Assembly: GCA_037127795.1 (NCBI GenBank)
Contig: JBAXXQ010000001.1
Coordinates: 78,607 to 142,606 of the forward strand
Direction of reading: 5' to 3'
Source: a bacterium
Lineage (GTDB): Bacteria; Patescibacteriota; Minisyncoccia; Phycocordibacterales; UBA9973
DNA length: 64,000 bases
The notes beneath the pieces are model-generated. The model ran no database searches, was not told the origin of the DNA, and saw nothing but the letters and a program-made list of their open reading frames with translations. The position numbers were made by a program, and so were the translations under genes. Below, piece after piece: positions 7,467 to 61,599 of the stretch (its first letter is position 1; every line of letters begins with the position of its first letter).

Positions 7467-8228
7467 ATGATAGAAGAAACACTACAAAACATAGGGTTAA
7501 CTGATAAAGAAATTCAAGTTTTTTTAACAGTTTTTCAAAATAAAAGAATTTTACCAGCACGAATAAGTACACTGTCTGGTATTAATCGTTCTACGGTATA
7601 TGTAATTGGGGAAAAACTAGAAAAAGAAGGACTTATTACTATCGATTACGGAAATAGTAGTAGATATTTTGTTGCACCTGATATACAAGATTTGGAAAAA
7701 CAACTAAAACAAGAAGAAGAAAAACTTCAAAAAAAAGAGCAGTCTTATAAAAATTTACTCAAAGAGCTTAAAAATTTACCTGTTACTGGAAAATATTCAG
7801 TACCAAAAATTCGTTTTATAGCAGAACATCAATTAAAAGATTTTCTTATTAAAGAATCAGATAAATGGGCAAAAAGCGCTCTTTTATATGATAAAACATG
7901 GTGGGGGTATCAAGACCCTACACTACTCGAGCAATATGAATCTTGGCCTGATTATTTTTGGCCAAAATATAAGAACGACATCTTGATGAAAATTTTTACA
8001 AATAAAAAGATTATCGAAAAAAAGATTAGTAAAAAGAATTATTCAGGCAAGAGAATGATTAAATTCCTTGATCCTAAAAAACATGATTTTTCTGCAACAC
8101 AGGTAGTTGTTGGAGAATATATTCTTATGATAGTAACAAGAGAACATCCTCATTATTTAATAGAGATACACGATGCTGTTATGGCTCACAATCTTAGAGA
8201 ATCTTTTAAATTAATGTGGGGAGAATAG
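7467..8228 (+). CDS. TrmB-family (winged HTH) transcriptional regulator
   Basis: N-terminal LTDKEIQVFLTVFQNKRILPARISTLSGINRSTVYVIGEKLEKEGLI matches the TrmB-type HTH; 253 aa. Confidence 0.55.
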   Translation: MIEETLQNIGLTDKEIQVFLTVFQNKRILPARISTLSGINRSTVYVIGEKLEKEGLITIDYGNSSRYFVAPDIQDLEKQLKQEEEKLQKKEQSYKNLLKELKNLPVTGKYSVPKIRFIAEHQLKDFLIKESDKWAKSALLYDKTWWGYQDPTLLEQYESWPDYFWPKYKNDILMKIFTNKKIIEKKISKKNYSGKRMIKFLDPKKHDFSATQVVVGEYILMIVTREHPHYLIEIHDAVMAHNLRESFKLMWGE

Positions 8229-8234
8229 TGTGTA

Positions 8235-8294
8235 CAACAAAAAAATACCGATCGTGTGCTCACAACCGGTATTTATACGAAATGGGTAAAATAA
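8235..8294 (+). repeat. direct repeat copy 2 (relic of methyltransferase 3' end), 57/60 identical to 6586-6645
   Basis: caacaaaaaaataccgatcgtgtgctcacaaccggtatttatAcgaaatgggtAaaAtaa immediately after the TrmB stop. Confidence 0.9.
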
Positions 8295-12034: not shown

Positions 12035-12295
12035 ATTTTTTGTAGTATGCTATGCTATCTCTAGAACGTACTTATCTAGTGTACTACAAAAAAGCAGCAA
12101 TCTCTAAGCAGTCAGCCTACGGTTCTAAGTTTAGGCCAAGGACGCTTTGGTTCCGACTGGTGCTATCCTCGAAATATTCTTTACTTATATTTTCTAATAT
12201 CTATAAGGACTGTTTAGAGATTAGTGCTTTTTTGTTCATATATAAAAATTTTTTATATATACAAAATATCTGTATGAAAATATAGACTTATAAAA

Positions 12296-12330
12296 TAAAA
12301 ACACCCAGTAGTTATATTGGGTGTTTTTAT
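12296..12330. terminator. bidirectional hairpin (A-run/stem/T-run)
   Basis: aaaataaaaacacccagtagttatattgggtgtttttatttt. Confidence 0.55.
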
Positions 12331-14324
12331 TTTATGCAGTATACTCATATATAGTGTATATACTTTTTTCTAATCATAAAAAAACTTTTTTTGCACTCGC
12401 ATTTGTATTGTGTTTCGGTGCATCTATTTCATACGCAGACAGAGTCGCGCCATATAGTGCAGGAGAAACACTCGATCCAGACTGTGCGCCAAATAGTGGG
12501 GTGAATTGCAGTGTGCATATCACAACCGGGGGAGGAAGTCAGACATTGCAACAAGTACTTACTGCAGGAAGTACGCTGACACAAGATATTACTATTGATG
12601 CGACAGGGCACAGTCTCACTATTAATACAGATAATCTAAACCTAAATGCACTTAATGGTAATACTATAATTCAAGGGGGTGGCGGAACAGAGTTTGATTT
12701 GTTAAATAATGGCAGTATTACTCTTGCTGCTGGTGCTGGTGATATATTATTTGATAATCCGGGTTCAAATTATTTTAAGCTTAAATATAATGGGTCTAAT
12801 GAATTTGTTTCAACCAATGGTACGAATATAACCGATAGTACATATGGAAATGCGTTATTTCTTGCTAATGATGGCTCAGCAAGTCTTACTTCAACAAACG
12901 GTAGTGATATATCTTTAAATGCTGATCACGATATTATATTAACCGCACCCAATGATGCTATTTCTATAGCATCACCGCAGGTAGATGTTATTAGTAGTAA
13001 TGGGGGGCAAGGTCTTCATATGGGGTTGTTTGGTTCAACAAAAATAACGGCAATTAATGGAGAGGATTTGCAATTGGTCAATGATAATAATAATAACTTT
13101 ATACACCTGAGTGGTAATGGTGCTACTTCTATTACTTCGCAAAATTCTCAAGATATAAATATTACTGGTGATGAGCGAGTAATTATTACTGCAAACGATA
13201 ATTTGAATAATAATTATGGTATTGAACTTCATGCAGGAACCGCACAAGCATATTTTAATAAAGATGCTGATATAAATTTTCAAACAGGAGATAGAAGTTT
13301 CTTTGATATGGGTGGTGGGGGAAATATTGATTTTGTAAACGGAAATCATTCAAACGAATTCACTCTTGATCAAGATGGTGGAATCACAGCAATAACTACA
13401 AACGGGTACCCTTTTAATGTTACTGCAAATAATGGTGATATATATCTACAAAGCACTACACATAATAATGGTTTATTTATTCAAAATGACGGATCTTCAT
13501 ATATAACAGCAAGTTTTGAGCTTGGTATTTCAAATACGACATCAAATGCTCGAATATATATGGAAAATAATGGCAACATGCAATTATTTGCTACAAATAG
13601 TGCCAATATGGATTTTGATGTACGTAGTGGAAAGTTTAGTTTTACTGCAGCCACCGGTAATAATACTCCTGTGGTTATAGGTACAAACTCTGGTAATACC
13701 TGTACTTTCTCTACTACCACCGGTACATTCGCATGTGCATCTGATGTACGCCTCAAGCATAATATAAACTCGCTCGATAGTACTGCATTATCAAAAATAC
13801 TTTCATTGAATCCTGTAACGTTTAATTACAACTGGCAATCACCAACAGATGCATCAGTACCAGGATTTATTGCGCAAGAATTTGAGACAGTATTTCCTGA
13901 TATGGTAAGTATTGATCCGACTACGGGGTATAAATCTCTCTCATACACTCCACTTATTCCATACACCATAAAAGCAATACAAGATATACATACTCAAACC
14001 ACAAACCTCGCAAGCCTTACAGGAGACACAGGGAATACACTCAAGGGTGCATTGATAGCTTGGTTTGCCGATATACATAACGGTATTACAAAATTATTTG
14101 CAGATGAGGTTGATACCAATAAATTGTGTGTTGGTGCAGTGTGTGTGACTAGTGATCAATTTTTACAGATGGTACAACAAATACAAACGCAAAATACTGT
14201 ACAAAATAATATTCCAAGTAGTACTCCTGTTGTAGATCCTGTAGTTCCTAGTACTACACAAACACCACCTAGTATAGATACTCCAACTACGCCACCTACA
14301 GATGCTCCAATAGTGACTCAATAA
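12321..14324 (+). CDS. secreted beta-helix/tail-fibre-like protein with C-terminal Peptidase_S74 intramolecular chaperone domain
   Basis: Signal peptide KKTFFALAFVLCFGASISYA (true start probably GTG ~12354); Gly/Asn/Thr-rich repeats; C-terminus SDVRLKHNINSLDSTALSKILSLNPVTFNYNW...GFIAQEFETVFPDMV...GYKSLSYTPLIPYTIKAIQDI matches the S74 endosialidase/tail-fibre chaperone domain; Pro/Thr-rich tail. Confidence 0.6.
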   Translation: MFLFYAVYSYIVYILFSNHKKTFFALAFVLCFGASISYADRVAPYSAGETLDPDCAPNSGVNCSVHITTGGGSQTLQQVLTAGSTLTQDITIDATGHSLTINTDNLNLNALNGNTIIQGGGGTEFDLLNNGSITLAAGAGDILFDNPGSNYFKLKYNGSNEFVSTNGTNITDSTYGNALFLANDGSASLTSTNGSDISLNADHDIILTAPNDAISIASPQVDVISSNGGQGLHMGLFGSTKITAINGEDLQLVNDNNNNFIHLSGNGATSITSQNSQDINITGDERVIITANDNLNNNYGIELHAGTAQAYFNKDADINFQTGDRSFFDMGGGGNIDFVNGNHSNEFTLDQDGGITAITTNGYPFNVTANNGDIYLQSTTHNNGLFIQNDGSSYITASFELGISNTTSNARIYMENNGNMQLFATNSANMDFDVRSGKFSFTAATGNNTPVVIGTNSGNTCTFSTTTGTFACASDVRLKHNINSLDSTALSKILSLNPVTFNYNWQSPTDASVPGFIAQEFETVFPDMVSIDPTTGYKSLSYTPLIPYTIKAIQDIHTQTTNLASLTGDTGNTLKGALIAWFADIHNGITKLFADEVDTNKLCVGAVCVTSDQFLQMVQQIQTQNTVQNNIPSSTPVVDPVVPSTTQTPPSIDTPTTPPTDAPIVTQ

Positions 14325-14332
14325 AAAAACCT

Positions 14333-14360
14333 TTCAATTAAGAAAGGTTTTTTTATTTAT
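14333..14360. terminator. bidirectional terminator
   Basis: aaaaaaacctttcaattaagaaaggtttttttattt between convergent genes. Confidence 0.7.
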
Positions 14361-16072
14361 TCCATATCGACGACACTTTGTACTTCTTCAAAATCTGTAA
14401 TACCTTGGAGGATTTTTACGAGGCCATCTTCGCGCATATCGAGAGTGCCTTGTTGGTCAGCAATTTTTTTGATATCGCGCTCAGTAGGGTTTTGCATAAT
14501 GATATGTTCAATATTTTCATCCATTTGTATTGCTTCAAAAACACCAAGCCGTCCTTTGTAGCCTGTGTGGTTGCAGTGAGTACAGCCTTTTGCTGCAACA
14601 AGTGTTTGTACGTCTCGTTGTACACCAAATTGTGCCATATCTTTTTTATTTGCTATAGCATTGTCCCAAATTTTTTGTATCAAAAGTGTTTCTTTTTCTG
14701 TGACAGGGCGATCATAGCGACATTCAGTACAAATTTTTCGTACAAGACGCTGCGCAATAGAAAGCGAAAGAGCGGATACGAGAATCTTTGGATTCACATC
14801 AAGATCGATAAGGCGGGGGATAACACCAGACGCATTGTTGGTGTGCAGTGTTGAAAATACCAAGTGTCCAGTAAGTGCACTTTCTACTGCGATTTTTGCT
14901 GTTTCACTGTCTCGGATTTCTCCCACCATGATTGTATCTGGATCTTGTCGAAGTGCCGATCGAAGCCCTTCGAGGAAGGTATAGCCAAGTTTGTGATCTA
15001 CTTGTGTCTGTGTGATACCAGGAAGGTGGTATTCGATAGGGTCTTCGATGGTAATAATTTTTATTTCAGGAGAAAATATTTTTTGCAAAAAGGCATACAA
15101 AGTGGTGGTCTTTCCAGATCCTGTCGGCCCAGTAAGGAGTATCATGCCGTGAGGTTTTTTGATCTCTTTCATAAAAAGCTCATACATGGGGGCAGAGATT
15201 CCCATTTGGTCGAGTTGTACACGAATAGATTTTGGATTCAAAATACGAAGCACAATACTTTCGCCATATGCGCCTGGGATAAGTGATGTACGAAAACTAA
15301 TTTCTATTTTTTCTTCGTCTTTTGTTCCACCAAGGAATGCACTAAATCGTCCGTCTTGGGCATTGGCTACTTGAGTGAGCTTGAGTCCTGAAATAAGTTT
15401 TACGCGAGTGTTGAGCTGGTGGTATGTTGCCGTATCAAACATAGTGATGACATGGAGTACGCCGTCGAGACGAAAACGCAATTCAGCGTTATTTTCCATA
15501 GGTTCTATGTGTACATCAGATGCACCAAGTCCAATACCGCATCCAAGAATAATTTCGAGGATACGAGAGAGGTGGTGCATTGAAGTGTCGTTTTTTGCGA
15601 GATCAATACGAGTAGTCGCATCATCAAGAGTTTTTACAGAGACTGCGAGCTCTTCGAGAACCTCAGGAGAAATATCGAGTCCACCACTACGAGAAGTAGT
15701 TGCAAAAGAAAGATCTTCGTAGTGAGTCCATACTTTCTTTATACTTTTTTCACTTGCCATATTAAATACAACTTCGAAACCATCTGCCTCAAGTTTTTCT
15801 TTTGCGCTTCGTGCGCCAGTTGCAATAGGGGATCGTACTGCGAGAAAGAGCTTCTTACCAATAAGTTTGTATGGGCCAACATCAAAATGTTTTGCTTCTT
15901 CTTCGGTGAGGAGGCGAATTGCGTCATTACTAATAGTTTGACTTTCAAGATTTACATAAGGAATTTGGTACTTTTCTTCGGCGAGTGTCTTAACAAGAGA
16001 TTCTTCTTCTTGCTCTCGAAGAGTTCTAAGTCGTTTGTTTTGTTGTGTTTCATCAAAGGTTACCATAATCAA
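14357..16072 (-). CDS. pilB: type IV pilus assembly / type II secretion ATPase (PilB/GspE family)
   Basis: Walker A LLTGPTGSGKTTTL, Asp box, His box; tetracysteine CTECRYD...CTHCNHTGYKGR; N-terminal GspII_E-N-like domain. Confidence 0.85.
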   Translation of the reverse strand: MIMVTFDETQQNKRLRTLREQEEESLVKTLAEEKYQIPYVNLESQTISNDAIRLLTEEEAKHFDVGPYKLIGKKLFLAVRSPIATGARSAKEKLEADGFEVVFNMASEKSIKKVWTHYEDLSFATTSRSGGLDISPEVLEELAVSVKTLDDATTRIDLAKNDTSMHHLSRILEIILGCGIGLGASDVHIEPMENNAELRFRLDGVLHVITMFDTATYHQLNTRVKLISGLKLTQVANAQDGRFSAFLGGTKDEEKIEISFRTSLIPGAYGESIVLRILNPKSIRVQLDQMGISAPMYELFMKEIKKPHGMILLTGPTGSGKTTTLYAFLQKIFSPEIKIITIEDPIEYHLPGITQTQVDHKLGYTFLEGLRSALRQDPDTIMVGEIRDSETAKIAVESALTGHLVFSTLHTNNASGVIPRLIDLDVNPKILVSALSLSIAQRLVRKICTECRYDRPVTEKETLLIQKIWDNAIANKKDMAQFGVQRDVQTLVAAKGCTHCNHTGYKGRLGVFEAIQMDENIEHIIMQNPTERDIKKIADQQGTLDMREDGLVKILQGITDFEEVQSVVDME

Positions 16073-16115: not shown

Positions 16116-16144
16116 CTTGACAAATAAGCACAAATCTGCTATAC
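16116..16144 (+). promoter_or_regulatory. sigma70-like promoter TTGACA-N17-TATACT (with TGc extended -10)
   Basis: cTTGACAaataagcacaaatcTGcTATACT upstream of 16187 ORF; near-identical copy at 17177-17205. Confidence 0.6.
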
Positions 16145-16186
16145 TAATATCAGAAAACAAATTAAATAATCTATAAATTAAGTTTT

Positions 16187-17110: not shown

Positions 17111-17176
17111 TTGCAAAAAAGCTTTATTTAAAAGGACATCTTCGGATGTCCTTTTCTTATTTCTTATTATAAGTAC

Positions 17177-17205
17177 TTGACAAAATTATATAAATCTGCT
17201 ATACT
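17177..17205 (+). promoter_or_regulatory. sigma70-like promoter TTGACA-N17-TATACT (duplicate of 16116-16144 motif)
   Basis: cTTGACAaaattatataaatcTGcTATACT. Confidence 0.6.
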
Positions 17206-17247
17206 ATACTCAGAAACAAATTAAATCATATATAAACTTTTTGCAAC

Positions 17248-19966: not shown

Positions 19967-19989
19967 GGTATAAGGTGAGAAAAAATAAT

Positions 19990-20025
19990 ACCCCGCCCGT
20001 ACATCTTACGGGCGGGGTATTATGC
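19990..20025 (+). terminator. rho-independent terminator
   Basis: ccccgcccgtacatcttacgggcggggtattat. Confidence 0.7.
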
Positions 20026-29952: not shown

Positions 29953-30095
29953 GGTAGGGTAGGAATCGCTTCTCGATTCGTTCGAAACAAATCTCTCGGT
30001 AGGAATCGCTTCTCGCCGCTGGTGCGGCTCGAAACAAAAATCTCTCATCGAGATTTTTGCCTACGGTTCGATTCCTACTATCGAAAAACATATAA
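29953..30095. repeat. tandem (2.5x) and inverted partial copies of the 3' end (T-arm/acceptor) of the adjacent tRNA-Arg(GCG)
   Basis: ggtaggaatcgcttctcg...tcgaaacaaa(a)tctctc repeated at 29958 and 30000, matching tctctcggtaggaatcg of the tRNA 3' end; inverted ggttcgattcctac at 30067-30080. Confidence 0.7.
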
Positions 30096-30133
30096 TAAAA
30101 AATACCCACGAACGTGAGTATTTTTTATTATTG

Positions 30134-36386: not shown

Positions 36387-36466
36387 GTTCGCGACCCCGC
36401 CTCAGCGCTGTATCGCCTCCCAGGCGCGCGCTTCCGGTTTTCTCATATCGCACATTCCGAGTAGAT
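36387..36466 (+). ncRNA. candidate small structured RNA (unclassified), GC-rich core 36387-36437
   Basis: ~75% GC over 51 nt (gttcgcgaccccgcctcagcgctgtatcgcctcccaggcgcgcgcttccgg) in an AT-rich genome; alternative cgcc/ggcg pairings; followed by terminator. Confidence 0.25.
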
Positions 36467-36467
36467 A

Positions 36468-36505
36468 CTAAAAAACACTATCAGAAGATAGTGTTTTTTA
36501 GTATT
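36468..36505. terminator. bidirectional terminator (candidate sRNA / tRNA-Ser)
   Basis: aaaaaacactatcagaagatagtgtttttt perfect 9-bp stem. Confidence 0.75.
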
Positions 36506-42584: not shown

Positions 42585-42591
42585 CAAATAC

Positions 42592-42625
42592 AAAAAAGCA
42601 CAGATTAAATTCTGTGCTTTTTTGT
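42592..42625 (+). terminator. rho-independent terminator after tRNA-Leu
   Basis: aaaaaagcacagattaaattctgtgcttttttg. Confidence 0.75.
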
Positions 42626-42732
42626 ATTAAGTTGCAGTATAAAAGTGACTTGAACCGTAGGCGAATATTTGTAAAACAAATATTCGTTTCGAACGAAGTG
42701 AGAGGCAAGTCCTCTCGTAAATAAATACCTCT

Positions 42733-45916: not shown

Positions 45917-46558
45917 ATGCAAGTAAAAGAATGTTCACCTGTAGGGATAGATGTTATACAAAACAAAGGAGCAATTATTATCGGAGTAAGTATTAATAAT
46001 AGTTATTTTAAAGAATCTAATTTAACAAAAATAATTTCTTGGTCAGCGACAAGAGCAAGTAATGTTTATATTATGATTCCTGATACTCCGTCGGTAAGTA
46101 CATTAATTGCTTTAGGGTATGAGCAGAATAAGGCAGAAACACTAGCAAGACTGAAATCTAATAGTTTAGAAAATAAGTGTTTATTTATTATTAAAGAATT
46201 AAATCTTGATAATATAAAAATTATTAGATGGAGGGATTTGATAGGAAGGATAGAATATGTTCAAGCAATCGGGCATATTAAATATTTCTACGACAACGAC
46301 CTATCTTTTAAAGATGCATTGAGAAAAACAACTAGTGATGTTCTCAAACATAATATGTCGGATGTTCCTAGTGAATCTCAGATAGATATAGGTGTTGTTT
46401 TCTTACTTCAAGAGCTTGCCTTTATTTGTCATGCAGACTCTATTTTAAAAGAAGAGAAGTTGGGATATTTGTATCACAACACAATGGATGTTTTAAAAGG
46501 GATTATTGAAAATAGGTTTTCTTTCAAAACAAAAATTGGTTTTATCACCGCAGAATAA
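45917..46558 (+). CDS. tRNA-dependent cyclodipeptide synthase (CDPS, AlbC/YvmC family)
   Basis: AIIIGVSINNSYFKESNLTKIISWSA matches the CDPS hallmark GISxxNSxF..LIxWA; FLLQELAFICH...YLYH matches the ELP(F/Y)..YH C-terminal catalytic region; 213 aa. Confidence 0.65.
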   Translation: MQVKECSPVGIDVIQNKGAIIIGVSINNSYFKESNLTKIISWSATRASNVYIMIPDTPSVSTLIALGYEQNKAETLARLKSNSLENKCLFIIKELNLDNIKIIRWRDLIGRIEYVQAIGHIKYFYDNDLSFKDALRKTTSDVLKHNMSDVPSESQIDIGVVFLLQELAFICHADSILKEEKLGYLYHNTMDVLKGIIENRFSFKTKIGFITAE

Positions 46559-46704
46559 TCATTACCTTTAAAAGCCTATATGTGATTTATAGGCTTTTTT
46601 TGTTTATATATTAATTCCTTCTAATAGAGTTTCCTAAGCTCGTCGAGTATAGGACACCCTATTTAGACAAGCTTAGAACAGCTTTTCTGGTATACTTGTT
46701 ATAT

Positions 46705-47667
46705 ATGGATTTAATTAATTGTCTTGAAAATAATTGTTTTGGAGTTCCTGATTCTAAAATAGATACACTTTTATCAACATTGTATTTTTTTAACGAAAAG
46801 GTAATAAAGATTTATAAACATAAAAAAGCTTTTTATGGTGATTTGTCAGATAGTGATTTCAGAAGAGATTTTTATATTGAAGATTTTACTTGGAATAATA
46901 CATTGAGCCCTGATTTATATCTTCGTTTGGTCGGTGTTGTTATTGAAAACAATATTCCCGTAGAGGTCTCACATGGTAGTGCTACAGATTTTTATATAGA
47001 AATGAAGAAAATAGATAGTTCAAAAAATATAACAAATTTGTTAGATAAAAATAAGATAACATCTGAAGATTTGGAATCTATCACTTCTTACATGATTAAA
47101 AAAATAAGGGTCCTTACTTCTGAAAAAAAAGAAAAAATGAAGGATTTATTTTTAGGTAATTGGAAGGCTATTTTAACTCAAGATGTTGAAGATTTACGGG
47201 GGTGGATGTATATGGCTGATACCTATATATTTAAAGGTGATGTTGATGAAATAATTGATTTTTTAAAAACATCTATTAATAATGATGAATATATTTCAAG
47301 TTTTAAATCTATTGATCTTGCAGTTTCTATTGACAATCAAGGTGACAACATACTTATGATTGATAATAAACCTTTGTTTATAGATATAATGCCACCTAAA
47401 TACAATTGGCGGGTTTGTGATGAATTTTTTAATATTTCAAGAATTGCTGTTGATGCTTATGTTCTTGGTGATGAAAAAAAGTATGAATCAGTATATGAAG
47501 TTTTTAATAATTTTGGGATAGAACCACCAGAACGAACAAGAATTATTTATGAAATTAGAAGTGCTCTTATTTTATGGCCATATAGACATATTCTTGGGCA
47601 AAATGAAATGGCTGAAAAGTATAAAAAATTTACTCTTGATAAAATTAATATATTAAAATCTTTGTAA
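46705..47667 (+). CDS. hypothetical protein, possible kinase-like (APH/PKL) fold
   Basis: SIDNQGDNILMID (Dx4N Brenner-like) followed by FIDIM (DFG-like Asp); leaderless: TGgTATACT -10 ends 8 nt before ATG. Confidence 0.3.
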   Translation: MDLINCLENNCFGVPDSKIDTLLSTLYFFNEKVIKIYKHKKAFYGDLSDSDFRRDFYIEDFTWNNTLSPDLYLRLVGVVIENNIPVEVSHGSATDFYIEMKKIDSSKNITNLLDKNKITSEDLESITSYMIKKIRVLTSEKKEKMKDLFLGNWKAILTQDVEDLRGWMYMADTYIFKGDVDEIIDFLKTSINNDEYISSFKSIDLAVSIDNQGDNILMIDNKPLFIDIMPPKYNWRVCDEFFNISRIAVDAYVLGDEKKYESVYEVFNNFGIEPPERTRIIYEIRSALILWPYRHILGQNEMAEKYKKFTLDKINILKSL

Positions 47668-47668
47668 T

Positions 47669-48457
47669 ATGGAAAAAATAAATTTTGAAACAAAAGAGAA
47701 TATTCCTAAATATAATATAACAAAGGTTGATTTCATAAGACATGGATCTACAAAATATGAGGAGAATAACTTATCAAAAGAAGAAAAAGATTTATTAGGT
47801 GAAAATATTCCTTTAGATTTAACACCTGAAGGTGAAGAAGAGGTTAAAAAATCTGCTGAAGAAATAATTAAAAAAATAAATCCAGAAAAAGAGATTGTAG
47901 TACTTTGGAGCTCTCCTGCCTGGAGAGCTCAAGGGTCTGAATCTATTATTAATCAAATGCTTAATAATGCTGGTATCCTTGTCTATAAAGATTCTTCTAT
48001 TAATCAAATGAGAAGTTTTGATCAGTATGATAAGGATTATATGGATAGTGTTTGGAAAAAAATAGCACCTATTGGTACTTCCTCAGAATTATTATATGCA
48101 CGCGATCCTGAGTTTCAGAGTAGAAATGATAAATTTGAGAGTCAACCAGAGGTGAAGGAAAGAGCAGAGCAGGTATTTAATTGGATTAGATATTTAAATG
48201 AGCATATTAATTTAGAAGATAAAAATCTTCATATTATAGGTGCTAGTCATTTTGAATTTTTAAATCCTATCATGGAAGATATATTTGATTTTAGGGTTGA
48301 AAATGGTGACGCTTTTAAAAAGGGGGAGAATATCAGCATTCAGTTTAATTTTAACAAGGAAACAAAAGAAACGAGTATTACTGCAGACTTCCGTGGGGTA
48401 CATAAAGAGGGTATTATTTTTGACCCTATAAAAAGAAAGTTTTCACTATTACCCTAA
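47669..48457 (+). CDS. histidine phosphatase superfamily protein (branch 1)
   Basis: FIRHGST (RHG) and IIGASHFE (SH) catalytic signatures. Confidence 0.6.
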   Translation: MEKINFETKENIPKYNITKVDFIRHGSTKYEENNLSKEEKDLLGENIPLDLTPEGEEEVKKSAEEIIKKINPEKEIVVLWSSPAWRAQGSESIINQMLNNAGILVYKDSSINQMRSFDQYDKDYMDSVWKKIAPIGTSSELLYARDPEFQSRNDKFESQPEVKERAEQVFNWIRYLNEHINLEDKNLHIIGASHFEFLNPIMEDIFDFRVENGDAFKKGENISIQFNFNKETKETSITADFRGVHKEGIIFDPIKRKFSLLP

Positions 48458-48499
48458 GCTCATTGGGCATAGGATCTAATTAATGTAACACTACATATA

Positions 48500-48540
48500 T
48501 TGACACATATGCCGTTTATCTATAATGTAAAGAAAAAATA
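48500..48540 (+). promoter_or_regulatory. promoter TTGACA-N15-TATAAT plus conserved 5' UTR gtaaagaaaaaata
   Basis: 20-mer tataatgtaaagaaaaaata identical to 50180-50199. Confidence 0.5.
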
Positions 48541-48546
48541 TAGTAA

Positions 48547-49167
48547 ATGAAAAAACAAAATTTATTCTTTGATTTAGATGGTATGAAATTTGATACCTTA
48601 CCAGTGTTTGTTTCTTATATCAATAATAGATATGGAATACAGACTAAAACTTCTGATCATATTGGTAATAATGACCGTTTGGATGCTGTTATAAAAAAAC
48701 ACGCACCACATATTACTTTGAGTTGGGAAGAGATTTATAAAGATGTTGGTGAAAATTTTCACTCATCGATAGTATGGCATAAAGATGTAGAGCCAATGGA
48801 AGATATGTGTGAAGTTATTTCGTTACTTTCAAATAAATATAATCTTTATACGGTTACCGCACGTCAGAAGGTAGGTGTTCATGTTGTCCAATATTTATTG
48901 GATACTCATATTCCTGGATGTATAGATGATATACATTGTGTATGGGACTATATTGAAGGAAAAGGTTTTTTTGAAATATCTAAAAAAGATTTCATAAAAA
49001 ACACACAAGGTGATAATATTGGATTTTTTGATGATTCATTAAATGAGGTAATGAAGGTCAAGAACACAATCCCTTCCTATTTGTTTGATCCAATGGATTT
49101 GTATGCAGACGTTCAAGGAGTAACTCGTATACGTAGTTGGCAGCAAATTGGTCATTTATATTTATAA
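48547..49167 (+). CDS. HAD-superfamily phosphatase, 5'(3')-deoxyribonucleotidase (NT5C)-like
   Basis: N-terminal LFFDLDGM (DxDG nucleophile motif); ~200 aa. Confidence 0.55.
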   Translation: MKKQNLFFDLDGMKFDTLPVFVSYINNRYGIQTKTSDHIGNNDRLDAVIKKHAPHITLSWEEIYKDVGENFHSSIVWHKDVEPMEDMCEVISLLSNKYNLYTVTARQKVGVHVVQYLLDTHIPGCIDDIHCVWDYIEGKGFFEISKKDFIKNTQGDNIGFFDDSLNEVMKVKNTIPSYLFDPMDLYADVQGVTRIRSWQQIGHLYL

Positions 49168-49263
49168 AAGTACGAGACAAGAAGTTTTTGCAGTAATGTA
49201 AAAACTTCTTTTTTGTTTTATATAAATGAATTTAAAAAAATATTTTCTGGTATACTTGTCTAT

Positions 49264-49659
49264 ATGAAAGAACTTACTCAAGAAGAAAAGTGGGTGATTA
49301 TCGACAAGGGGACAGAAGCTCCATTTGTGGGTACGTATGTAAACAATAAAGAGACTGGTGTATATGTGTGCAAACAGTGTGGTGCGCCGTTGTATGATTC
49401 AAAAGATAAATTTGAGTCTAGTTGTGGATGGCCTAGTTTTGATGATGAGATCTCTGGTGCGATTCATAAAAGTATTGAGAGTCGCGCTTCAATGGACACT
49501 GCGCGACACGATTCTGCAGAATCGAATGTCCGCACAGAAATAACTTGTGCGCACTGTGGTGGACACCTGGGGCACATATTCAAAGGTGAGCATTTTACAG
49601 ACAAAGATATTCGACATTGTGTAAACTCAATTTCATTAGATTTTATTCCAGGAAAATAA
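49264..49659 (+). CDS. msrB: peptide methionine (R)-S-oxide reductase MsrB
   Basis: CKQCGAPL...[18 protein letters not shown] (Zn Cys pairs + catalytic Cys); leaderless behind TGgTATACT. Confidence 0.85.
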
Positions 49660-49660
49660 T

Positions 49661-50146
49661 ATGATCAAAAAAGCAGTATTTGCAGGTGGGTGTTTTTGGG
49701 GATTACAAGATCTGATACGAAAGCAGGTAGGTGTGATAGAAACACAGGTGGGGTACACAGGAGGTAGTATAGAAAATCCTACATACGAGCGACATACAGG
49801 GTACGCAGAAGCAGTCGAGATCACATATGATACAGAAAAAACATCATACAAAAACTTACTTGATTTTTTCTTTCAAATTCATAACCCTACTACACTAAAC
49901 CAACAAGGCAATGATCGGGGGACTTCGTATCGCTCAGCAATTTTTTATGGAAATGAAGAAGAGAAGAAAGAGGCTGAAGATTTTATAAAAATTGTAAATG
50001 ATTCAAAACGGTGGGACGGTCCTGTGGTTACGACGCTCGAGCCGCTTGGTATCTTTTGGAGGGCAGAGGAATATCACCAAGACTATTTGGTAAAAAACCC
50101 TGCTGGATATACTTGCCACGCCATTTGGTTCGATAGTTATTTATAA
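49661..50146 (+). CDS. msrA: peptide methionine (S)-S-oxide reductase MsrA
   Basis: FAGGCFWG active-site motif. Confidence 0.85.
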
Positions 50147-50158
50147 AATGCACGTTTA

Positions 50159-50199
50159 TTGACATATATATATTTTAGTTATAATGTAAAGAAAAAATA
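50159..50199 (+). promoter_or_regulatory. promoter TTGACA-N15-TATAAT plus conserved 5' UTR (twin of 48500-48540)
   Basis: tataatgtaaagaaaaaata. Confidence 0.5.
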
Positions 50200-50203
50200 A
50201 AAT

Positions 50204-50728
50204 ATGGAAAAAATAGTAATTACTCAGGATCCTTTTACTCTTAGTAAGGAAATTATTGATGAGTATGGTGAATTTTTATTAGCACCAGAATATCAATTAC
50301 GTAGTTTTAGTGTTGGTGTATCATTTACGGTAAATGATTTAGAAATTATCGGTATGTATGGTCCAAATAGGTATCTCACCGGTTTGGAATTCAGAAATCA
50401 AATTGTTGCAAAAAAGTATGTACCACTTGATGCATATTGTGCTCAGGCTATTTTGCAAAATGAAGAAGCTTGTTATGAATTGAAATCAAAATGGTATCAA
50501 GAATTTTCTCATAAAGACAATACCGACCTAGACACGATAAGCTTTTTTGGATCTATGTTAGTTGATTGTAATAAAGCATTACAGGTACTTTCTTTTAAGT
50601 ATGATAATTGGACTGATTTTTATCAGCGACCAATTCTTACTCCTTTTGAAGCACGGGATCCATGGTTTAAAGATGATGATTTTGCTCTTGTTTTCAAAGA
50701 AGATTTTATAAAAAAGAATTTTGAATAA
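50204..50728 (+). CDS. hypothetical protein
   Basis: 174-aa ORF. Confidence 0.35.
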   Translation: MEKIVITQDPFTLSKEIIDEYGEFLLAPEYQLRSFSVGVSFTVNDLEIIGMYGPNRYLTGLEFRNQIVAKKYVPLDAYCAQAILQNEEACYELKSKWYQEFSHKDNTDLDTISFFGSMLVDCNKALQVLSFKYDNWTDFYQRPILTPFEARDPWFKDDDFALVFKEDFIKKNFE

Positions 50729-50741
50729 AATTTTACAACAC

Positions 50742-50778
50742 ACACAAATATCCTCTATGTCTCTGGAATAGAGGGTAT
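50742..50778 (+). terminator. rho-independent terminator
   Basis: tcctctatgtctctggaatagagggtattttttt. Confidence 0.65.
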
Positions 50779-50821
50779 TTTTTTATTAATTAATAAAAAA
50801 TATTTCTGATATACTCTGTGT

Positions 50822-52198
50822 ATGGAAAATGAATATAAAAATGACGGGGTAAATGAAATTTCGAAAACAAAAACGAATTGGAAATTTTTAGGTATTATGC
50901 TCGTTATTTTAATTGTTCAGATGGTTGGTATCTTTTTTTCTGGTGTATTGATGTTTATCAATGGTATAGATACGTTTAGTTTAGGTCTTTTTATAGGGGG
51001 ATTTATCGTTGCTACTGGTGTCATCTTGCTCCCTTTACCTTTTTGGATTACAGCGAAAAAGCAAAATAAAGGTTCAATTTTTACAATAAATATCCTTATC
51101 AGTGGTATTGTCTGTATCGAATTGGTATTTGTTTTAATAAGCTCAATTATTGGTGGTATACACAATCACTATCAACAAAAAGCATTTCAGGCACAGCTGA
51201 CACAAGAGACTGCTCGTGATAAAACAGAGTATCAAAAAATAATTAGCGGACCACAAACTGTTTTGATTAAGGGGTGGAAAGATAATAATAGTGGAACAAA
51301 TTTACTTGAAACAAATCTTGATTTCTACATATTACTTAATACATCATTTACTCCAGCTATAATAGATTACATTAATAAAAATATTGTTGGAAAACAGTTT
51401 GATCTTATTGTGCCTGAATATGCACCAGGAGAAATTAGTAATTCTGGGTCTAATGAGTATCCTATATGGTCTTGTAGATGTGATCTTGGTCAGAATGGAC
51501 AAGGATTTGAATCGATACTTAGTAAAATTTATAGAAATACACAACCACAATTTAATTCTAGTAATCAAATTATTAGTGAACAAAAAGCAACATATTCTCC
51601 TGGAGATGAATATGTTGATAAATTTATACATGGCACATTTAAAATTTTAAAGACAAATCAGGTTTTTGATTACAAATCTGCGTATGGGACTAATCCAGTA
51701 GGAAGTATCGCTGATTATAATCAATATGCAGTAAGTGATTGTATAACTAAAAATTGTAAAATAGTTTATTTTATAGATAATACATATAGTAATGTTGGGC
51801 CTGCGAATACATTAGCTGTTTTTAATGATATAGATAATCCTGCAATTGGTAAGGTTGTTGATACTACTTTTTATTCTGATGTGAAAAAAGTTGCAAAATT
51901 TTCTACCCCATATAAACCAGAAGACAAGGTTGTGTATACCATTTCATACACGCAAGGTGTAAAACAGGGACAGGTCACATATACAGACAACCTATGTACA
52001 GGTACTAAAGGGGGAGGGTTTAGTTGTCATGAGCCAAGCCTGTATAAAAATGCATTTGCTATATTTTCTCATACCGACAGCCAAGAAGAATATCAAAGTA
52101 TGAACTTCACAGGAAAAATAATAGAGACTGAATTGACCAGCTATCAGTATGCAACTCAGCCAGATACAGGTGAGCAGTTTCCTTTGGTAAAAAGATAA
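50822..52198 (+). CDS. hypothetical membrane protein (3 N-terminal TM helices + large Cys-containing extracytoplasmic domain)
   Basis: 458 aa; leaderless behind TGaTATACT. Confidence 0.4.
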   Translation: MENEYKNDGVNEISKTKTNWKFLGIMLVILIVQMVGIFFSGVLMFINGIDTFSLGLFIGGFIVATGVILLPLPFWITAKKQNKGSIFTINILISGIVCIELVFVLISSIIGGIHNHYQQKAFQAQLTQETARDKTEYQKIISGPQTVLIKGWKDNNSGTNLLETNLDFYILLNTSFTPAIIDYINKNIVGKQFDLIVPEYAPGEISNSGSNEYPIWSCRCDLGQNGQGFESILSKIYRNTQPQFNSSNQIISEQKATYSPGDEYVDKFIHGTFKILKTNQVFDYKSAYGTNPVGSIADYNQYAVSDCITKNCKIVYFIDNTYSNVGPANTLAVFNDIDNPAIGKVVDTTFYSDVKKVAKFSTPYKPEDKVVYTISYTQGVKQGQVTYTDNLCTGTKGGGFSCHEPSLYKNAFAIFSHTDSQEEYQSMNFTGKIIETELTSYQYATQPDTGEQFPLVKR

Positions 52199-57598: not shown

Positions 57599-58978
57599 AT
57601 GAAAGAAGTGCATACAGAAGGAACGTTAGAAAAAATTGTTACAGAATCAGCGGAAGTGTTTGATGAGGGGGTGCAAGAAGTGTCTCACTTGGAGCATGAA
57701 TTTATTAGTAAAAAACCTTTTCGTTTTGCAAAAGAGTATTGGGATATATTAGGGCCAGGGCTCACTACAGGGGCCGCAGATGATGATGCTTCTGGTATTG
57801 TGACGTATTCTCAAACAGGTGCCCAATACGGTACACGATTTTTGTGGCTTTCTTGGTTTTCATTCCCGCTTATGGCTTTTGTACAAGAGATGTGTGCACG
57901 TCTCGGTATTGTAAAAGGGAAGGGGCTTGCTGGTGTAATGCGTGAACACCTATCAGTGCGTGTTTTGTATTTTGTGACCGCATTACTATTTCTTGCCAAT
58001 ACATTTAACATAGGCGCAGATCTTGGTGCTATGGCAGAAAGTACTCAGCTCATCCTGCCTCATATTCCTTTTGCAGTTTTGGTATTTGGTTTTGGTTTAC
58101 TCATAGTACTACTTCAGTTGTATACGACATATGCGCGATATGCAAAATATCTCAAATATACAGGACTTGTATTGTTTGCATATATTATTTCTGCATTTTT
58201 GGTACACCTCCCGTGGCGTAGTGTGTTGATACATACCGCAGTACCACATATGGCATTCAATAAAGATGAAGTACTTTTGGTTTGTGGAATTTTGGGAACA
58301 ACAATTTCTCCATATCTGTTCTTCTGGCAAACATCTCAAGAAGTAGAAGAAAAACATTTGGAAAAAGTACAAAATCATACAGGACACACGCTTTCATTAA
58401 AGAAACAAATTTCTCGTATGCGTATAGATGTATGGAGTGGGATGTTTTTCTCAAACGCAGTAATGTTCTTCATTATTGCTGCTTGTGCCGGAGCATTGTT
58501 CACTCATGGTATCAATGATATTACGACAGCACGAGAAGCTGCAGAAGCGCTTCGCCCATTCGCAGGAAATTTTGCTTCAACTATTTTTGCAGTGGGAATT
58601 ATTGGTATAGGATTTCTTGCAATACCTGTACTTGCTGGGTCTAGCGCATATGCATTGTCTGAGAGTATGGGCTGGCGCGAAGGATTGTATAAAAAGGTAA
58701 AACAGGCTCGTGCGTTTTATGGAGTAATTCTCATGTCTGTGATTATCGGTATCGCATTGAACTTCACTCATATTAGCTCAATGAAGTTGTTGTTATACTC
58801 TGCAATCGCAAATGGTATCGTTGCGCCAGTTATTATTTTCTTTATTGTAAAATTGAGTGCGCAAAAAAGTATTATGGGGGAGCATACTAATTCAAAAACA
58901 CTTACATTCATAGGGTACGCTTTGGTAGTCGCTATGGCGACATGTGCGCTTGCTACTATCTATTTCCTCTTTGTATAA
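57599..58978 (+). CDS. mntH: NRAMP-family divalent metal (Mn2+/Fe2+) transporter
   Basis: GPGLTTGAADDDASGIVTYSQTGAQYG consensus Nramp motif; ~11 TM helices; -10 TGtTATACT at 57584-57592 implies leaderless ATG 57599. Confidence 0.85.
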   Translation: MKEVHTEGTLEKIVTESAEVFDEGVQEVSHLEHEFISKKPFRFAKEYWDILGPGLTTGAADDDASGIVTYSQTGAQYGTRFLWLSWFSFPLMAFVQEMCARLGIVKGKGLAGVMREHLSVRVLYFVTALLFLANTFNIGADLGAMAESTQLILPHIPFAVLVFGFGLLIVLLQLYTTYARYAKYLKYTGLVLFAYIISAFLVHLPWRSVLIHTAVPHMAFNKDEVLLVCGILGTTISPYLFFWQTSQEVEEKHLEKVQNHTGHTLSLKKQISRMRIDVWSGMFFSNAVMFFIIAACAGALFTHGINDITTAREAAEALRPFAGNFASTIFAVGIIGIGFLAIPVLAGSSAYALSESMGWREGLYKKVKQARAFYGVILMSVIIGIALNFTHISSMKLLLYSAIANGIVAPVIIFFIVKLSAQKSIMGEHTNSKTLTFIGYALVVAMATCALATIYFLFV

Positions 58979-59007
58979 AAGCCTTTTTTGTGATACCTTG
59001 GTACTAT

Positions 59008-59691
59008 ATGCATCCGCTTACACAGATAACGAATGAAATTGTTGAGATCTTTGCAGATCTTGGTTTCCAAGTAGTGCTTGGTCCCGAGCTTGAGAGTGAA
59101 GAATACAATTTTGATCGTCTCAACTTTCCAAAAGATCACCCAGCTCGTGATATGCAAGACACATTCTTTATCAAAGATCGTCCTGGGTACGTACTTCGTA
59201 CTCATACCTCAAATGTGCAAACTCGTTTTATGGAAGCACTTGTACAAAGTGGTGGTAAGCCGCCATTTGCAATTATTGCACCAGGAAAAGTATTTCGTAA
59301 TGAAGCAACAGACGCAACACACGAAATGCAATTTCACCAAGTAGAAGGATTGATGATTGGAGAGCAGGTAAATATGTCTCATCTCAAAGGGGTACTTCTT
59401 GATTTCTTCAAAAAGTTTCTCGGTCCTGATTCAGAGATTCGCCTTCGTCCAAGTTTCTTTCCATTCGTGGAGCCTGGAGTAGAAGTTGATGTAAGGGTGG
59501 GGGATAGATGGATCGAAGTCCTCGGTGCCGGTATGGTGCATCCGCACGTACTCGAAGCTGCAGGAATAGATTCAAAAAAATACCAAGGATTTGCATTTGG
59601 TATGGGTGCAGATAGATTTTTGGTAATGAAATATGGTGTGACAGATATCAGATTGTCATATCAAGGCGATCTCAGATTTAATCAATTTTAA
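59008..59691 (+). CDS. pheS: phenylalanine--tRNA ligase alpha subunit, short form (catalytic core only)
   Basis: Class II motifs: FPKDHPARDMQDTFF (motif 1), FRNEATDATHEMQFHQVEGL (motif 2), GFAFGMGADR (motif 3); 227 aa. Confidence 0.85.
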   Translation: MHPLTQITNEIVEIFADLGFQVVLGPELESEEYNFDRLNFPKDHPARDMQDTFFIKDRPGYVLRTHTSNVQTRFMEALVQSGGKPPFAIIAPGKVFRNEATDATHEMQFHQVEGLMIGEQVNMSHLKGVLLDFFKKFLGPDSEIRLRPSFFPFVEPGVEVDVRVGDRWIEVLGAGMVHPHVLEAAGIDSKKYQGFAFGMGADRFLVMKYGVTDIRLSYQGDLRFNQF

Positions 59692-59694
59692 TAT

Positions 59695-61599
59695 ATGAAA
59701 ATTTCTTACAACTGGCTACAATCATATATACAAGAACCACTTCCAAGCTTTGCGCAGCTTGAGGAAAAAATTATTTTTCACATGTTTGAAGTGGAAGAGG
59801 TAGAGCATGTTGGTGCTGATATAGTATTTGATATAAAAACACTTCCTGATAGAAATCATGATTGTTTGTCGCACCAAGGTGTTGCAAAAGAAATTGCTGG
59901 TTTGCTCGGATGTACCTTTAAAGATCCAACTGAGTTTTATAAAATCCCAGAATCGAGCCCTACAAAGCTTGTTATAGATATGCATCCAGATACTGCACGA
60001 AGATATATGTCTCGTATTGTGCGTACTGTTACTGTTGCGCCAAGTCCTACATGGGTACAAGATCATTTAAAATCTATCGGACAGCGATCAATAAATAATA
60101 TTGTTGATGCAACAAATATTGTGATGTATGATTGCGGGCAACCATGCCATGCATTTGATCTCGATAAGATCGTTGGCAATATTACTATCCGTCATGCGGT
60201 AGCAGGGGAGGCTATGACTACACTTGATAATAAAGATGTGGTACTTACAGAGTCTGATATTGTGGTTGCTGATGATGAGGGAGTCCTTGCGCTTGCTGGG
60301 GTAAAGGGTGGCAAAAAAGCAGAAGTTGATACTAATACAAAAAACATTGTTGTAGAGGTTGCAAATTTTTATCCAAACTTTGTACGCAAGACTCGTAGTC
60401 GTGTAGGGATTTTTACTGATTCTGCAAAACGTTTTGAAAATGATCTTTCTCCTGAATTGTGTGCATTTGCTATGCGAGAATTATCAGGACTTTTTGTAGA
60501 ATATGGTTTTACAGATTTTGAAGATATCGTAGATATATATCCACACAAGCAAGAAAAAAGAGAGGTAGTATTTTCTACAGGTTTTATAAATAAAAAACTT
60601 GGTACAAATATATCTGATGATGAAGTAGAAACTATTTTGAAAAATTATGGGTATGTATATGAAAAAGTTTCTCCAAAATCTCTCTTAGAAAAGTCCTCGG
60701 ATCTCCTCGCTTTGCTCGGCCAGACATTTTCTAATAGTGATTTTGTATATATTCTCACCGTGCCTGAATTGCGTTTTGATATTGCAATACCTGAAGACAT
60801 GGTAGATGAGATTGGGCGTGTGTATGGCTATGACAAAGTGGTCCCCGTAGTACCACAGCTTGATTTTGTTCCGCAAAAAAACCCTGTGTATGAAAGTATG
60901 AAAAATGCTCGTGATATATTACTTGCTCGTGAGTATAAAGAAGTCATGACGTATGGTTTTGCTGATAAAGGGGAGGTGCGAGTACTCAATAGTGCAAGTA
61001 ATAAAACCGCTCTTCGAGCAAATCTTACTGATGGGGTAAAACGAGCATACGAACTCAATAAGGGAAATGTTGCATTACTCGGTCTCAATGAAATTAAAAT
61101 TTTTGAAATAGGAACAGTCTTTACTAAAGAAAAAGAAGAGATTCATATTTGTTTTAATCTTAAAAAAGAAATTAAAGAAATGAGTCTTGAAGAATTTAAT
61201 ACAATGTTTTCTTCAGAAGAAAGTATTCTTCAGGTCTTCGGATCTCCTCGCTTTGCTCGGCCAGACCATTCAGAATATCTTTCTTCTTTTGAAAAGATAG
61301 AAGGTGTTAAAAAATTCAAAATGTGGAGTGTGTATCCATTTATAGTTCGTGATATTGCATTTTGGGCTGATGAAAAATCATACGAAGCATTTATTGCGGT
61401 GGGGGATAGTTTTGCGTCAAAGTATTGCGTGGTTCCTATGAAGATGTTCGATAGTTTTTCAAAAGAAGACAAGACTTCTTATGCATTTCGCTTTATTTTT
61501 CAATCATTTGAAAAAACCCTTACCGACGCAGAAGTAGAGGTGTGGTGGCAAGAACTACTCGCTGATATCGCTCATATATCAGGTATTACAGTACGATAA
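59695..61599 (+). CDS. pheT: phenylalanine--tRNA ligase beta subunit lacking the N-terminal tRNA-binding (EMAP) domain
   Basis: MKISYNWLQSYI start, B3/4 and B5 (VPELRFDIAIPEDMVDEIGRVYGYDKV) and C-terminal FDX-ACB regions; 634 aa vs ~800 typical. Confidence 0.85.
   Translation: MKISYNWLQSYIQEPLPSFAQLEEKIIFHMFEVEEVEHVGADIVFDIKTLPDRNHDCLSHQGVAKEIAGLLGCTFKDPTEFYKIPESSPTKLVIDMHPDTARRYMSRIVRTVTVAPSPTWVQDHLKSIGQRSINNIVDATNIVMYDCGQPCHAFDLDKIVGNITIRHAVAGEAMTTLDNKDVVLTESDIVVADDEGVLALAGVKGGKKAEVDTNTKNIVVEVANFYPNFVRKTRSRVGIFTDSAKRFENDLSPELCAFAMRELSGLFVEYGFTDFEDIVDIYPHKQEKREVVFSTGFINKKLGTNISDDEVETILKNYGYVYEKVSPKSLLEKSSDLLALLGQTFSNSDFVYILTVPELRFDIAIPEDMVDEIGRVYGYDKVVPVVPQLDFVPQKNPVYESMKNARDILLAREYKEVMTYGFADKGEVRVLNSASNKTALRANLTDGVKRAYELNKGNVALLGLNEIKIFEIGTVFTKEKEEIHICFNLKKEIKEMSLEEFNTMFSSEESILQVFGSPRFARPDHSEYLSSFEKIEGVKKFKMWSVYPFIVRDIAFWADEKSYEAFIAVGDSFASKYCVVPMKMFDSFSKEDKTSYAFRFIFQSFEKTLTDAEVEVWWQELLADIAHISGITVR
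60693..60725 (+). repeat. 29-nt exact (33-nt, 1 mismatch) GC-rich repeat copy 1 inside pheT
   Basis: gtcCtcggatctcctcgctttgctcggccagac encodes SSDLLALLGQ (frame 0). Confidence 0.9.
61234..61266 (+). repeat. 29-nt exact GC-rich repeat copy 2 inside pheT (different reading frame)
   Basis: gtcTtcggatctcctcgctttgctcggccagac encodes FGSPRFARPD (frame +1). Confidence 0.9.

Follow-up and report, generated by a model that had tools for sequence, protein, structure and literature searches.

Introduction

In yeast mitochondria, the mobile GC clusters and ‘byp’ elements are GC-rich hairpins that invade coding genes of an AT-rich, reduced genome, and the ribosome bypasses the byp elements, which may disrupt the reading frame. 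In bacteria, a review (PMC10969869, summarizing Ogata et al., 2000, 2002) describes the Rickettsia palindromic elements (RPEs) as in-frame palindromic repeats within the housekeeping genes of a reduced genome, and repetitive extragenic palindromes (REPs) are 20–40 nt long, extragenic, and carry a conserved GTAG or CGTC head (PMC3733652). Here, we describe an exact 29-nt repeat that occurs twice within pheT, the gene for the beta subunit of phenylalanine--tRNA ligase, in a 64,000-nt stretch (hereafter “the window”; 64 kb) of a metagenome-assembled genome (MAG) of the Patescibacteriota (assembly GCA_037127795.1, contig JBAXXQ010000001.1, positions 78,607 to 142,606). The two 29-nt matches are most likely the apical cores of two hairpins that belong to a multi-copy family, one specific to Paceibacteria/Parcubacteria-type Patescibacteria, and it is the scale and architecture of this family that are new here.

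The repeat and its two hairpins in pheT

The 29-mer TCGGATCTCCTCGCTTTGCTCGGCCAGAC occurs as two exact copies on the + strand (60697–60725 and 61238–61266) and extends to 33 nt with one mismatch (GTCYTCGG..., starting from 60693 and 61234). A first-pass annotation of the window had regarded this repeat as beyond chance, and the claim was confirmed as the 29-mer had no match in 100 dinucleotide-preserving shuffles; no further match with up to three mismatches was found in the window. The GC content of the 29-mer is 62%, slightly above the earlier figure of about 59%, vs. 36.4% for the pheT gene. The same DNA is indeed read in two frames, as the 29-mer begins at codon position 1 in copy 1 (peptide ..KSSDLLALLGQT..) and at codon position 2 in copy 2 (..VFGSPRFARPDH..), one frame off copy 1, and the junction peptides across the copies include ..QVFGSPRFARPDHSEY.. 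and ..EKSSDLLALLGQTF... The different frames and unrelated peptides support the original proposal of a nucleotide-level element rather than a duplicated protein segment. The encoded PheT is a 100% match to the protein of an NCBI MAG (580,599-bp contig). Both copies are also found in a separate Logan assembly (L001), and an orthologue from another sample (L002, with an 85%-identical PheT) has the copy at the second site with four differences over the 33-nt core, so the assembly artefact that the first annotation had named as a possible refutation is excluded.

The repeat unit is larger than the 29 nt assumed at first, as the exact stretches are the conserved tips of two longer hairpins of 72 and 95 nt (Table 1). 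The arm sequences of copies 1 and 2 are unrelated to each other, and the outer arms of copy 2 (61204–61223 and 61279–61298) are 80% complementary with an inner stem in addition. The orientation in which the core reads GTCC..CCAGAC, which is the + strand in the window, is referred to below as the core strand and the opposite as the complementary strand. The complementary strand folds better than the core strand in both copies (−14.1 vs. −11.0 and −15.6 vs. −12.3 kcal/mol). A covariance model of the family (R1, built from 67 short-loop copies) recovers copy 1 at 60663–60755 (− strand, 82 bits, E = 2e-21) and copy 2 at 61205–61296 (− strand, 76.1 bits); the next match in the window scores 17.6 bits, and no other family member was found in the 64 kb. 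A search of Rfam gave only tRNAs above the gathering threshold in the window and nothing with E < 3.8 in 60600–61350. The sequences 3′ of the two copies (ATTTTCT and CATTCAG) lie inside the coding sequence and do not have the layout of a terminator, that is, a U-run after the stem downstream of a gene.

Table 1. Coordinates of pheT and of the parts of its two hairpin elements (window positions unless stated otherwise).
Feature	Position	Strand	Evidence
pheT (phenylalanine--tRNA ligase beta subunit, 634 aa), carries both elements	59695..61599	+	ORF, translation, Pfam
PheT Pfam domains	B3_4 101-270; B5 293-379; core 386-488; FDX-ACB 545-634 (residues)		
Element copy 1, whole hairpin (72 nt, 24 codons; PheT residues 327-351, B5 loop)	60674..60745	+	Inverted repeat and covariance model
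Copy 1 left arm, copy-specific (19 nt, 89% complementary to 60727-60745)	60674..60692	+	Homologous to L004 site-1 arm
Copy 1 two-box core with 3-nt loop (GTCCTCGGATCTCCTCGC TTT GCTCGGCCAGAC)	60693..60725	+	Fits family consensus
Copy 1 right arm, copy-specific	60727..60745	+	Inverted repeat, L004 comparison
Element copy 2, whole hairpin (95 nt; PheT residues 504-535, linker between core domain and FDX-ACB)	61204..61298	+	Inverted repeat, covariance model, L002 orthology
Copy 2 left arm (outer 61204-61223 and inner ATTCT..GG segment)	61204..61233	+	Inverted repeat, folding
Copy 2 two-box core (GTCTTCGGATCTCCTCGC TTT GCTCGGCCAGAC)	61234..61266	+	Exact repeat
Copy 2 right arm	61267..61298	+	Inverted repeat, folding
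Distal internal loop in the window copies	~60663-60673 with 60746-60755; 61204-61210 with 61290-61298		

At the protein level, the predicted structure is consistent with both pheT insertions occupying tolerated surface or linker positions. In an AlphaFold model (23 orthologues), the predicted local distance difference test score is below 50 at residues 507–547 (site 2, the linker before FDX-ACB) and 60–65 at residues 331–350 (site 1, the B5 loop) vs. 85–88 in adjoining residues. The earlier siting of both copies in poorly conserved linkers stands to this extent, but copy 1 had been placed before the B5 domain and in fact falls inside it, in the loop preceding the VPELRFD strand.

Distribution of the family

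A pattern consisting of two boxes (GTCYTCGGWTCTCCTCGC and GCTCGGCCAGAC) separated by a variable loop was used to scan bacterial and archaeal genomes, with each species represented once. Both window copies match this two-box core exactly, and the pattern was found at at least 120 loci in the species-representative genomes. All of the matches listed are in Patescibacteria-type MAGs except for one ‘Bacteroidetes’ contig, and the other named records among them are Paceibacterota, Nomura-, Adler-, Vogel-, and Zambryskibacteria, Minisyncoccia, Parcubacteria, and generic Patescibacteria or ‘Saccharibacteria’ labels; several genomes supply at least four to eight loci each among these matches. In relatives, the element density is approximately one extra copy per 48 kb over 860 kb. 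No description of the family was found in the full-text literature, with the core sequences themselves included in the search.

The single contig labelled Bacteroidetes (L121, JACAAW010000233.1, 3.4 kb) carries element arms 100% identical to those of a locus of the Candidate Phyla Radiation (CPR), L109, with similar flanks. Since both element and flanks match a CPR locus, this is probably a Patescibacteria contig that was mis-binned in a Bacteroidetes MAG. The two-box pattern had no match in 2.9 million viral contigs, and a looser pattern gave 34 matches there, all attributed to chance in GC-rich DNA. The sole AT-rich match of the looser pattern (L018:8756–8789, on a viral contig) is the 3′ half of a phage tRNA, comprising the T-arm and acceptor (GGTCCTCGGTTCAAATCCGAGTAGCCAGACCA), and shares 13 and 9 nt with the two boxes of the element; the complementary strand of the element also holds a D-arm-like UGGCCGAGCG. 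A tRNA origin was nevertheless rejected, with the tRNA-Ser and tRNA-Leu of the window dissimilar, the T-stem complement absent, and the L018 resemblance judged coincidental. A DNA uptake sequence, which would be a hairpin-independent motif of 9–12 nt at about one copy per kb, was likewise rejected, with two copies in 64 kb and boxes that occur only inside hairpins.

Anatomy and strand asymmetry

Among 133 non-redundant copies, the element has a median length of 90 nt (range 62–170) and consists of arms of about 20–25 nt around a sequence-conserved, asymmetric two-box core of 23–57 nt, the apical loop of which varies from 3 to ~27 nt. Arm complementarity has a median of 21 out of 30 positions within a copy vs. 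one position when arms are swapped between copies. The consensus hairpin of the 67 short-loop copies has 25 pairs, 17 of which show compensatory double changes, and the arms retain a weak family consensus despite the differences from copy to copy. Many copies also carry a distal motif ~21 nt from the core (CTTC...T(A/T)CG on the core strand), which on the complementary strand forms an internal loop of the GAA/GAA type with closing G-C pairs and marks the ends of the repeat unit. The pheT gene of another orthologue (L004) has the same boxes in the core at both sites, enclosed by perfect outer stems (16 and 18 bp) whose sequences are unrelated.

Unrelated loci within a single genome carry paralogues with similar arms (L086/L091, L104/L112/L098, and L058/L089), and the similarity between these paralogues stops near GCTTC...TTCGC, with AT-rich flanks. 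Judging from the paired, copy-specific arms and from these paralogues that share arms, the repeat unit is the whole hairpin and not the 33-mer; in the window this amounts to a hairpin of ~72–95 nt, of which the 29-mer first taken for the unit is the conserved apex. A 66-nt insert in PheS of L005 is nearly a whole hairpin. No target-site duplication or flanking direct repeat was found at the paralogous copies or at the PheS insert. The possibility that the arms were copied from nearby DNA (target inverted duplication) was rejected, as no 12-mer source beyond chance was found within 8 kb and the PheS and PheT inserts already span nearly the whole hairpin.

The two strands of the element are not equivalent. 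Arm mismatches on the core strand are mainly C·U (109) and A·C (71) together with A·A, and only 15 G·U pairs occur, whereas the same mismatches on the complementary strand are G·U, G·A, and U·U; the core on the complementary strand has a conserved U·G pair and a tandem G·A. Of 130 copies compared, 121 fold more stably as the complementary strand (median difference 5.6 kcal/mol), and arms with the core swapped for a neutral loop still favor that strand (93 vs. 25, p = 2e-13). The folding bias is alike in sense, antisense, and intergenic copies, so the polarity is intrinsic to the element.

Genomic context

A set of 138 copies was sorted by position relative to long open reading frames (ORFs). 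The core strand is the sense strand of such an ORF for 73 copies and its antisense strand for 21, and the other 44 fall outside ORFs, such that 68% are intragenic. All sense frames are used (34, 24, and 12 copies), all 91 genic copies of 91 are in frame and free of stop codons, and the core consensus is stop-free in all six frames. The peptides derived from the core include VLGSPR..ARPDH, GPRISS..LGQTI, and (K/R)SSDLLA..GQT in the sense orientation, and GLAE..EEIRGP and VWPS..RRSED in the antisense orientation. The host genes encode TGT (9), TrmD (7), PolA (6), class-I aminoacyl-tRNA synthetases (aaRS; 6), LigA (5), PheT (5), UvrC (5), UvrB (4), and PheS (4). In orthologous proteins (e.g., TGT, PolA, and LigA), the same site holds the element in varying frames and in both orientations with homologous arms. 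Since the genic copies are always in frame and stop-free in whichever frame or orientation, they appear to be read through by the ribosome. Moreover, no gene was found to be interrupted by an out-of-frame element: around five intergenic copies in tight spacers, all ten adjoining ORFs are complete, unrelated genes. The genic copies must therefore be translated and not spliced out. Among the host genes, the class-I aaRS ORFs (L144:1–3324 and four others) have an unusual feature of their own, a histidine-phosphatase domain (His_Phos_1) inserted between catalytic stretches (residues 502–676 in L144).

Outside genes, the element often occupies the entire spacer between two complete, unrelated genes. 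Junctions of the type AAAA–core–TTTT occur in 26 of 43 intergenic copies vs. 11 of 91 genic copies, and by their sequence the intergenic copies often look like bidirectional intrinsic terminators. Their orientation relative to neighboring genes is close to even (23 vs. 20), and the antisense copies within genes truly oppose their neighborhood. An orientation bias confined to genes points to coding or mRNA constraints and not to replication; a link between orientation and replication was rejected, as local GC skew merely tracks the gene strand and the intergenic copies are unbiased. The core strand contains GGAUCUCCUC (window 60699–60710 and 61240–61251), which resembles the 3′ tail of 16S rRNA (GGAUCACCUCC, anti-Shine-Dalgarno region). 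The Shine-Dalgarno-like GAGGAGAUCC on the complementary strand could contribute to the 3.5:1 orientation bias in genes.

History of the pheT sites

Site 2 is occupied by a member of the family not only in the window but also in L002, L004, and L005. Among orthologues picked by protein similarity alone, 5 of 14 have the element at site 2, one of them reversed, and family members occur at this site in many orthologues of just 45–58% identity. Other lineages have a second hairpin family, other GC-rich hairpins, or nothing at site 2. The second family (L161:4440–4530, L166, and L170/L181) has the core GGCGCCTTCGCCCTCGGAGACATAGGACAGGGAACCCACGACGCC and the peptide GAFALGDIGQGTHDA with copy-specific arms, and its complementary strand is again the better folder; L162, L172, and L174 have yet different GC-rich hairpins. 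At site 1, just 3 of the 71 anchored orthologues carry an insert, and the empty state consists of 13 residues. The site-1 arms of the window are homologous to those of L004, the PheT of which is 57% identical, and include a compensatory change from C-G to T-A, although the apical part differs. L002 has an unrelated hairpin at site 1, and its site-2 element is orthologous to that of the window with conserved arms.

Because site 2 is shared with distant orthologues and the site-1 arms are shared with L004, both window copies are old rather than two fresh insertions. The first-pass annotation had also held that orthologues which keep the peptide segments would speak for ancestral sequence instead of insertion. 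Such orthologues exist in form only, as the thing kept is a DNA element, which is read in different frames and is once reversed.

The identity of the two cores is exceptional within the family. Cores identical over the 29-mer stretch occur in 0.3% of 8001 family pairs, none of these equals the window 29-mer, and the TTT loop of the window cores is found in none of the 127 other copies. The apices of the two copies, which are 541 bp apart, have thus probably been homogenized in recent times by gene conversion or template switching, an explanation preferred over two recent insertions since both copies are old and yet have identical cores. For dating the conversion, the best pheT relatives in JGI metagenomes are only 58% identical.

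Explanation and alternatives

The observations above are best accounted for by a family of whole-hairpin elements. Since the complementary strand folds better regardless of context, we infer that a single-stranded form matters. In such a mechanism, the single-stranded form (ssDNA or RNA) of the complementary strand would drive propagation and/or maintenance of the element, and a factor would recognize this form via the core, in the manner of REP/RAYT or IS200/IS605-type systems. The odds are about even that the family is in essence selfish and that some of its copies have been recruited as terminators. It is a tentative idea that these hairpins and the second family at the pheT site together represent a new class of single-strand-acting Patescibacteria elements, either moving through ssDNA or RNA with the apex, and not the ends, as the recognition site, or serving the host as a structured signal (RNA or ssDNA) that lies, usually in antisense, within linkers of essential genes and is maintained by selection.

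Several points weigh against a mobile hairpin family. The conservation of the core among the at least 120 loci is built into the search pattern, and the PheT orthologues fetched by protein similarity are the only evidence independent of the pattern. Mobility is deduced only from the same-genome paralogues, the 64-kb window of the 580,599-bp contig has two copies, and no transposase was found among recurrent ORFs within 1.5 kb of the elements at the at least 120 loci, where the recurrent neighbors are all housekeeping genes; likewise, no RAYT or TnpA gene was seen among those ORFs. Old copies retain paired arms and strand asymmetry, which is unexpected for an immobile selfish element and points to constraint in place. 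As for the pheT sites, the wholly different hairpin at site 1 of L002 means that the history of this site is more complex.

An alternative, which we regard as possible but doubtful, is a host function of the family. The element would then not be selfish DNA but a conserved structured nucleic acid, i.e., an RNA or ssDNA of the complementary strand acting in cis or trans and bound through the core and the distal GAA/GAA loop, and could serve in transcript processing, in terminating read-through or antisense transcription, or as a replication or repair signal. The ancient orthologous copies that hold the core, the strand asymmetry, and paired arms with compensatory changes are in line with this, as are the pair of conserved unpaired motifs set a constant ~21 nt apart and the terminator-like A-run/T-run junctions of intergenic copies. 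On the other hand, the mRNA carries the strand that folds less well in 78% of genic copies, the element has no conserved promoter, the intergenic copies show no orientation preference relative to neighbors, and there is no Rfam match. In other lineages, moreover, the pheT site either bears hairpins of unrelated families or lacks them, which means that no given core is required there.

The remaining explanations are less probable. Two independent, recent insertions of a short (29–33 nt) mobile GC-rich repeat in pheT would explain why the cores are identical, loop included, and the family evidently reaches new loci; this is nonetheless improbable, as related copies have whole hairpins in common and not the 33-mer alone, the arms of the window copies are mutually unrelated, the window and L002 have orthologous elements with conserved arms at site 2, and L004 has arms homologous to those of the window at site 1. 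Excision at the RNA level, similar to a mini-intron with cleavage at the hairpin base and ligation, would leave the element untranslated, and a long hairpin with base and apex motifs may suit structure-specific RNases. However, this is very improbable given that every genic copy is in frame and stop-free, that no gene is split and the ten flanking ORFs are complete, and that the orientation bias exists in genes and not between genes, as translation predicts. Least probable of all, to the point of being negligible, are an artefact in the form of an adapter or a chimeric assembly and a duplication at the protein level. Nothing except the GC-rich composition in an AT-rich gene favors an artefact, whereas two assemblies and an orthologue from another sample carry the sequence and the at least 120 loci come from many independent MAG projects; for a protein duplication, the differing frames and unrelated peptides are contrary evidence.

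Significance

Under the family of whole-hairpin elements, the repeat in the window would be explained by ordinary family biology and local gene conversion. In-frame, protein-coding palindromes have so far been treated as a peculiarity of Rickettsia, and the existence of a single-strand-acting element in Patescibacteria, if true, would end that uniqueness. With a structurally distinct analogue across the Paceibacteria-type CPR, it would be evident that hairpin DNA within essential genes has been repeatedly tolerated, or put to use, by reduced AT-rich genomes. If the element is instead a host signal, then selection would be acting on it across a clade put by the literature at 15–50% of bacterial species. 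The apex-conserved, strand-asymmetric architecture points to a recognizing factor. The family also offers a natural marker of insertion-tolerant sites in aaRS, PolA, LigA, UvrBC, TGT, and TrmD, and the lineage-specific peptide segments derived from the elements inflate and confuse alignments and annotation of CPR proteins.

Other features of the window

The window contains several ordinary intergenic hairpins (12290–12335, 14310–14367, 19985–20023, 30092–30131, 36465–36504, and 42587–42628) with an A-run, GC-stem, and T-run, which are bidirectional and terminator-like. Several of these adjoin tRNA genes, and their layout is that of the intergenic family variants of relatives. An 86-nt direct repeat with 83% identity (6560–6645 and 8209–8294) spans the final codons of two ORFs together with an embedded hairpin, ACCGATCG..CAACCGGT. 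Promoter-like blocks (TTGACA..TATAAT) are repeated at 48493–48554 and 50152–50213, and another promoter-like repeat pair (CTTGACAAA..TGCTATACT) is located at 16116–16165 and 17176–17225, 1060 nt apart. The region 46000–52000 has lower GC content (0.28–0.33), the highest GC skew of the window (0.15–0.23), and a run of same-strand ORFs. Upstream of pheT, the pheS ORF as listed (58942–59691) begins 22 codons upstream of the start in three aligned orthologues, giving MCACYYLFPLCIKAFFVIPWYY-M..., and the true start is probably the Met at ~59008.

Comparison with known systems

Rickettsia palindromic elements, proposed at the outset as the likeness, are indeed the nearest known analogy. Like RPEs, the Patescibacteria element is palindromic, lies in frame in many unrelated housekeeping genes of a reduced genome and also between genes, adds extra peptide segments at tolerated surface positions, and has no known transposase. 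The likeness is an analogy only, set beside RPEs by description, as the other host belongs to a different phylum; common descent is implausible because the host here is a Patescibacteria MAG. RPEs are ~100–150 bp long compared to the median of 90 nt here, and the Patescibacteria element has a conserved apex, copy-specific covarying arms, and an asymmetry in single-strand folding. Moreover, each RPE family encodes one conserved peptide in a fixed frame, whereas the Patescibacteria core is read in at least five frames and occupies the same protein site in varied frames and orientations.

The element also resembles the REP/REPIN-RAYT and IS200/IS605 systems, which are likewise short, GC-rich, multi-copy hairpins with neither target-site duplications nor classical terminal inverted repeats. 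Strand-specific recognition of a single-stranded hairpin, as in REP/RAYT and IS200/IS605, would account for the folding asymmetry, and some copies are terminator-like, as are REPs. Unlike REPs, the Patescibacteria element lacks the GTAG/CGTC head, its conserved part is apical, 68% of copies are intragenic, and its orientation outside genes is unlinked to the local direction of genes or replication. Transposable elements of the miniature inverted-repeat type (MITEs) and terminator-like repeats (ERIC, Correia, BOX, RUP, and SPRITE) are similar in being non-autonomous hairpin repeats of ~100 nt that lie within transcripts, are fused to ORFs in frame, or mimic rho-independent terminators. However, neither the conserved terminal inverted repeats nor the target-site duplications of MITEs were found in this family, where the outer arms are copy-specific; the Patescibacteria family also spans a class- or phylum-level clade and not one genus. 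In contrast to the byp elements of yeast mitochondria, the Patescibacteria elements always keep the frame. Given that it has no fixed peptide frame, GTAG/CGTC head, extragenic restriction, terminal repeats, target duplication, or nearby transposase, the element is treated here not as a member of any named family but as a new variant of the non-autonomous hairpin repeat.

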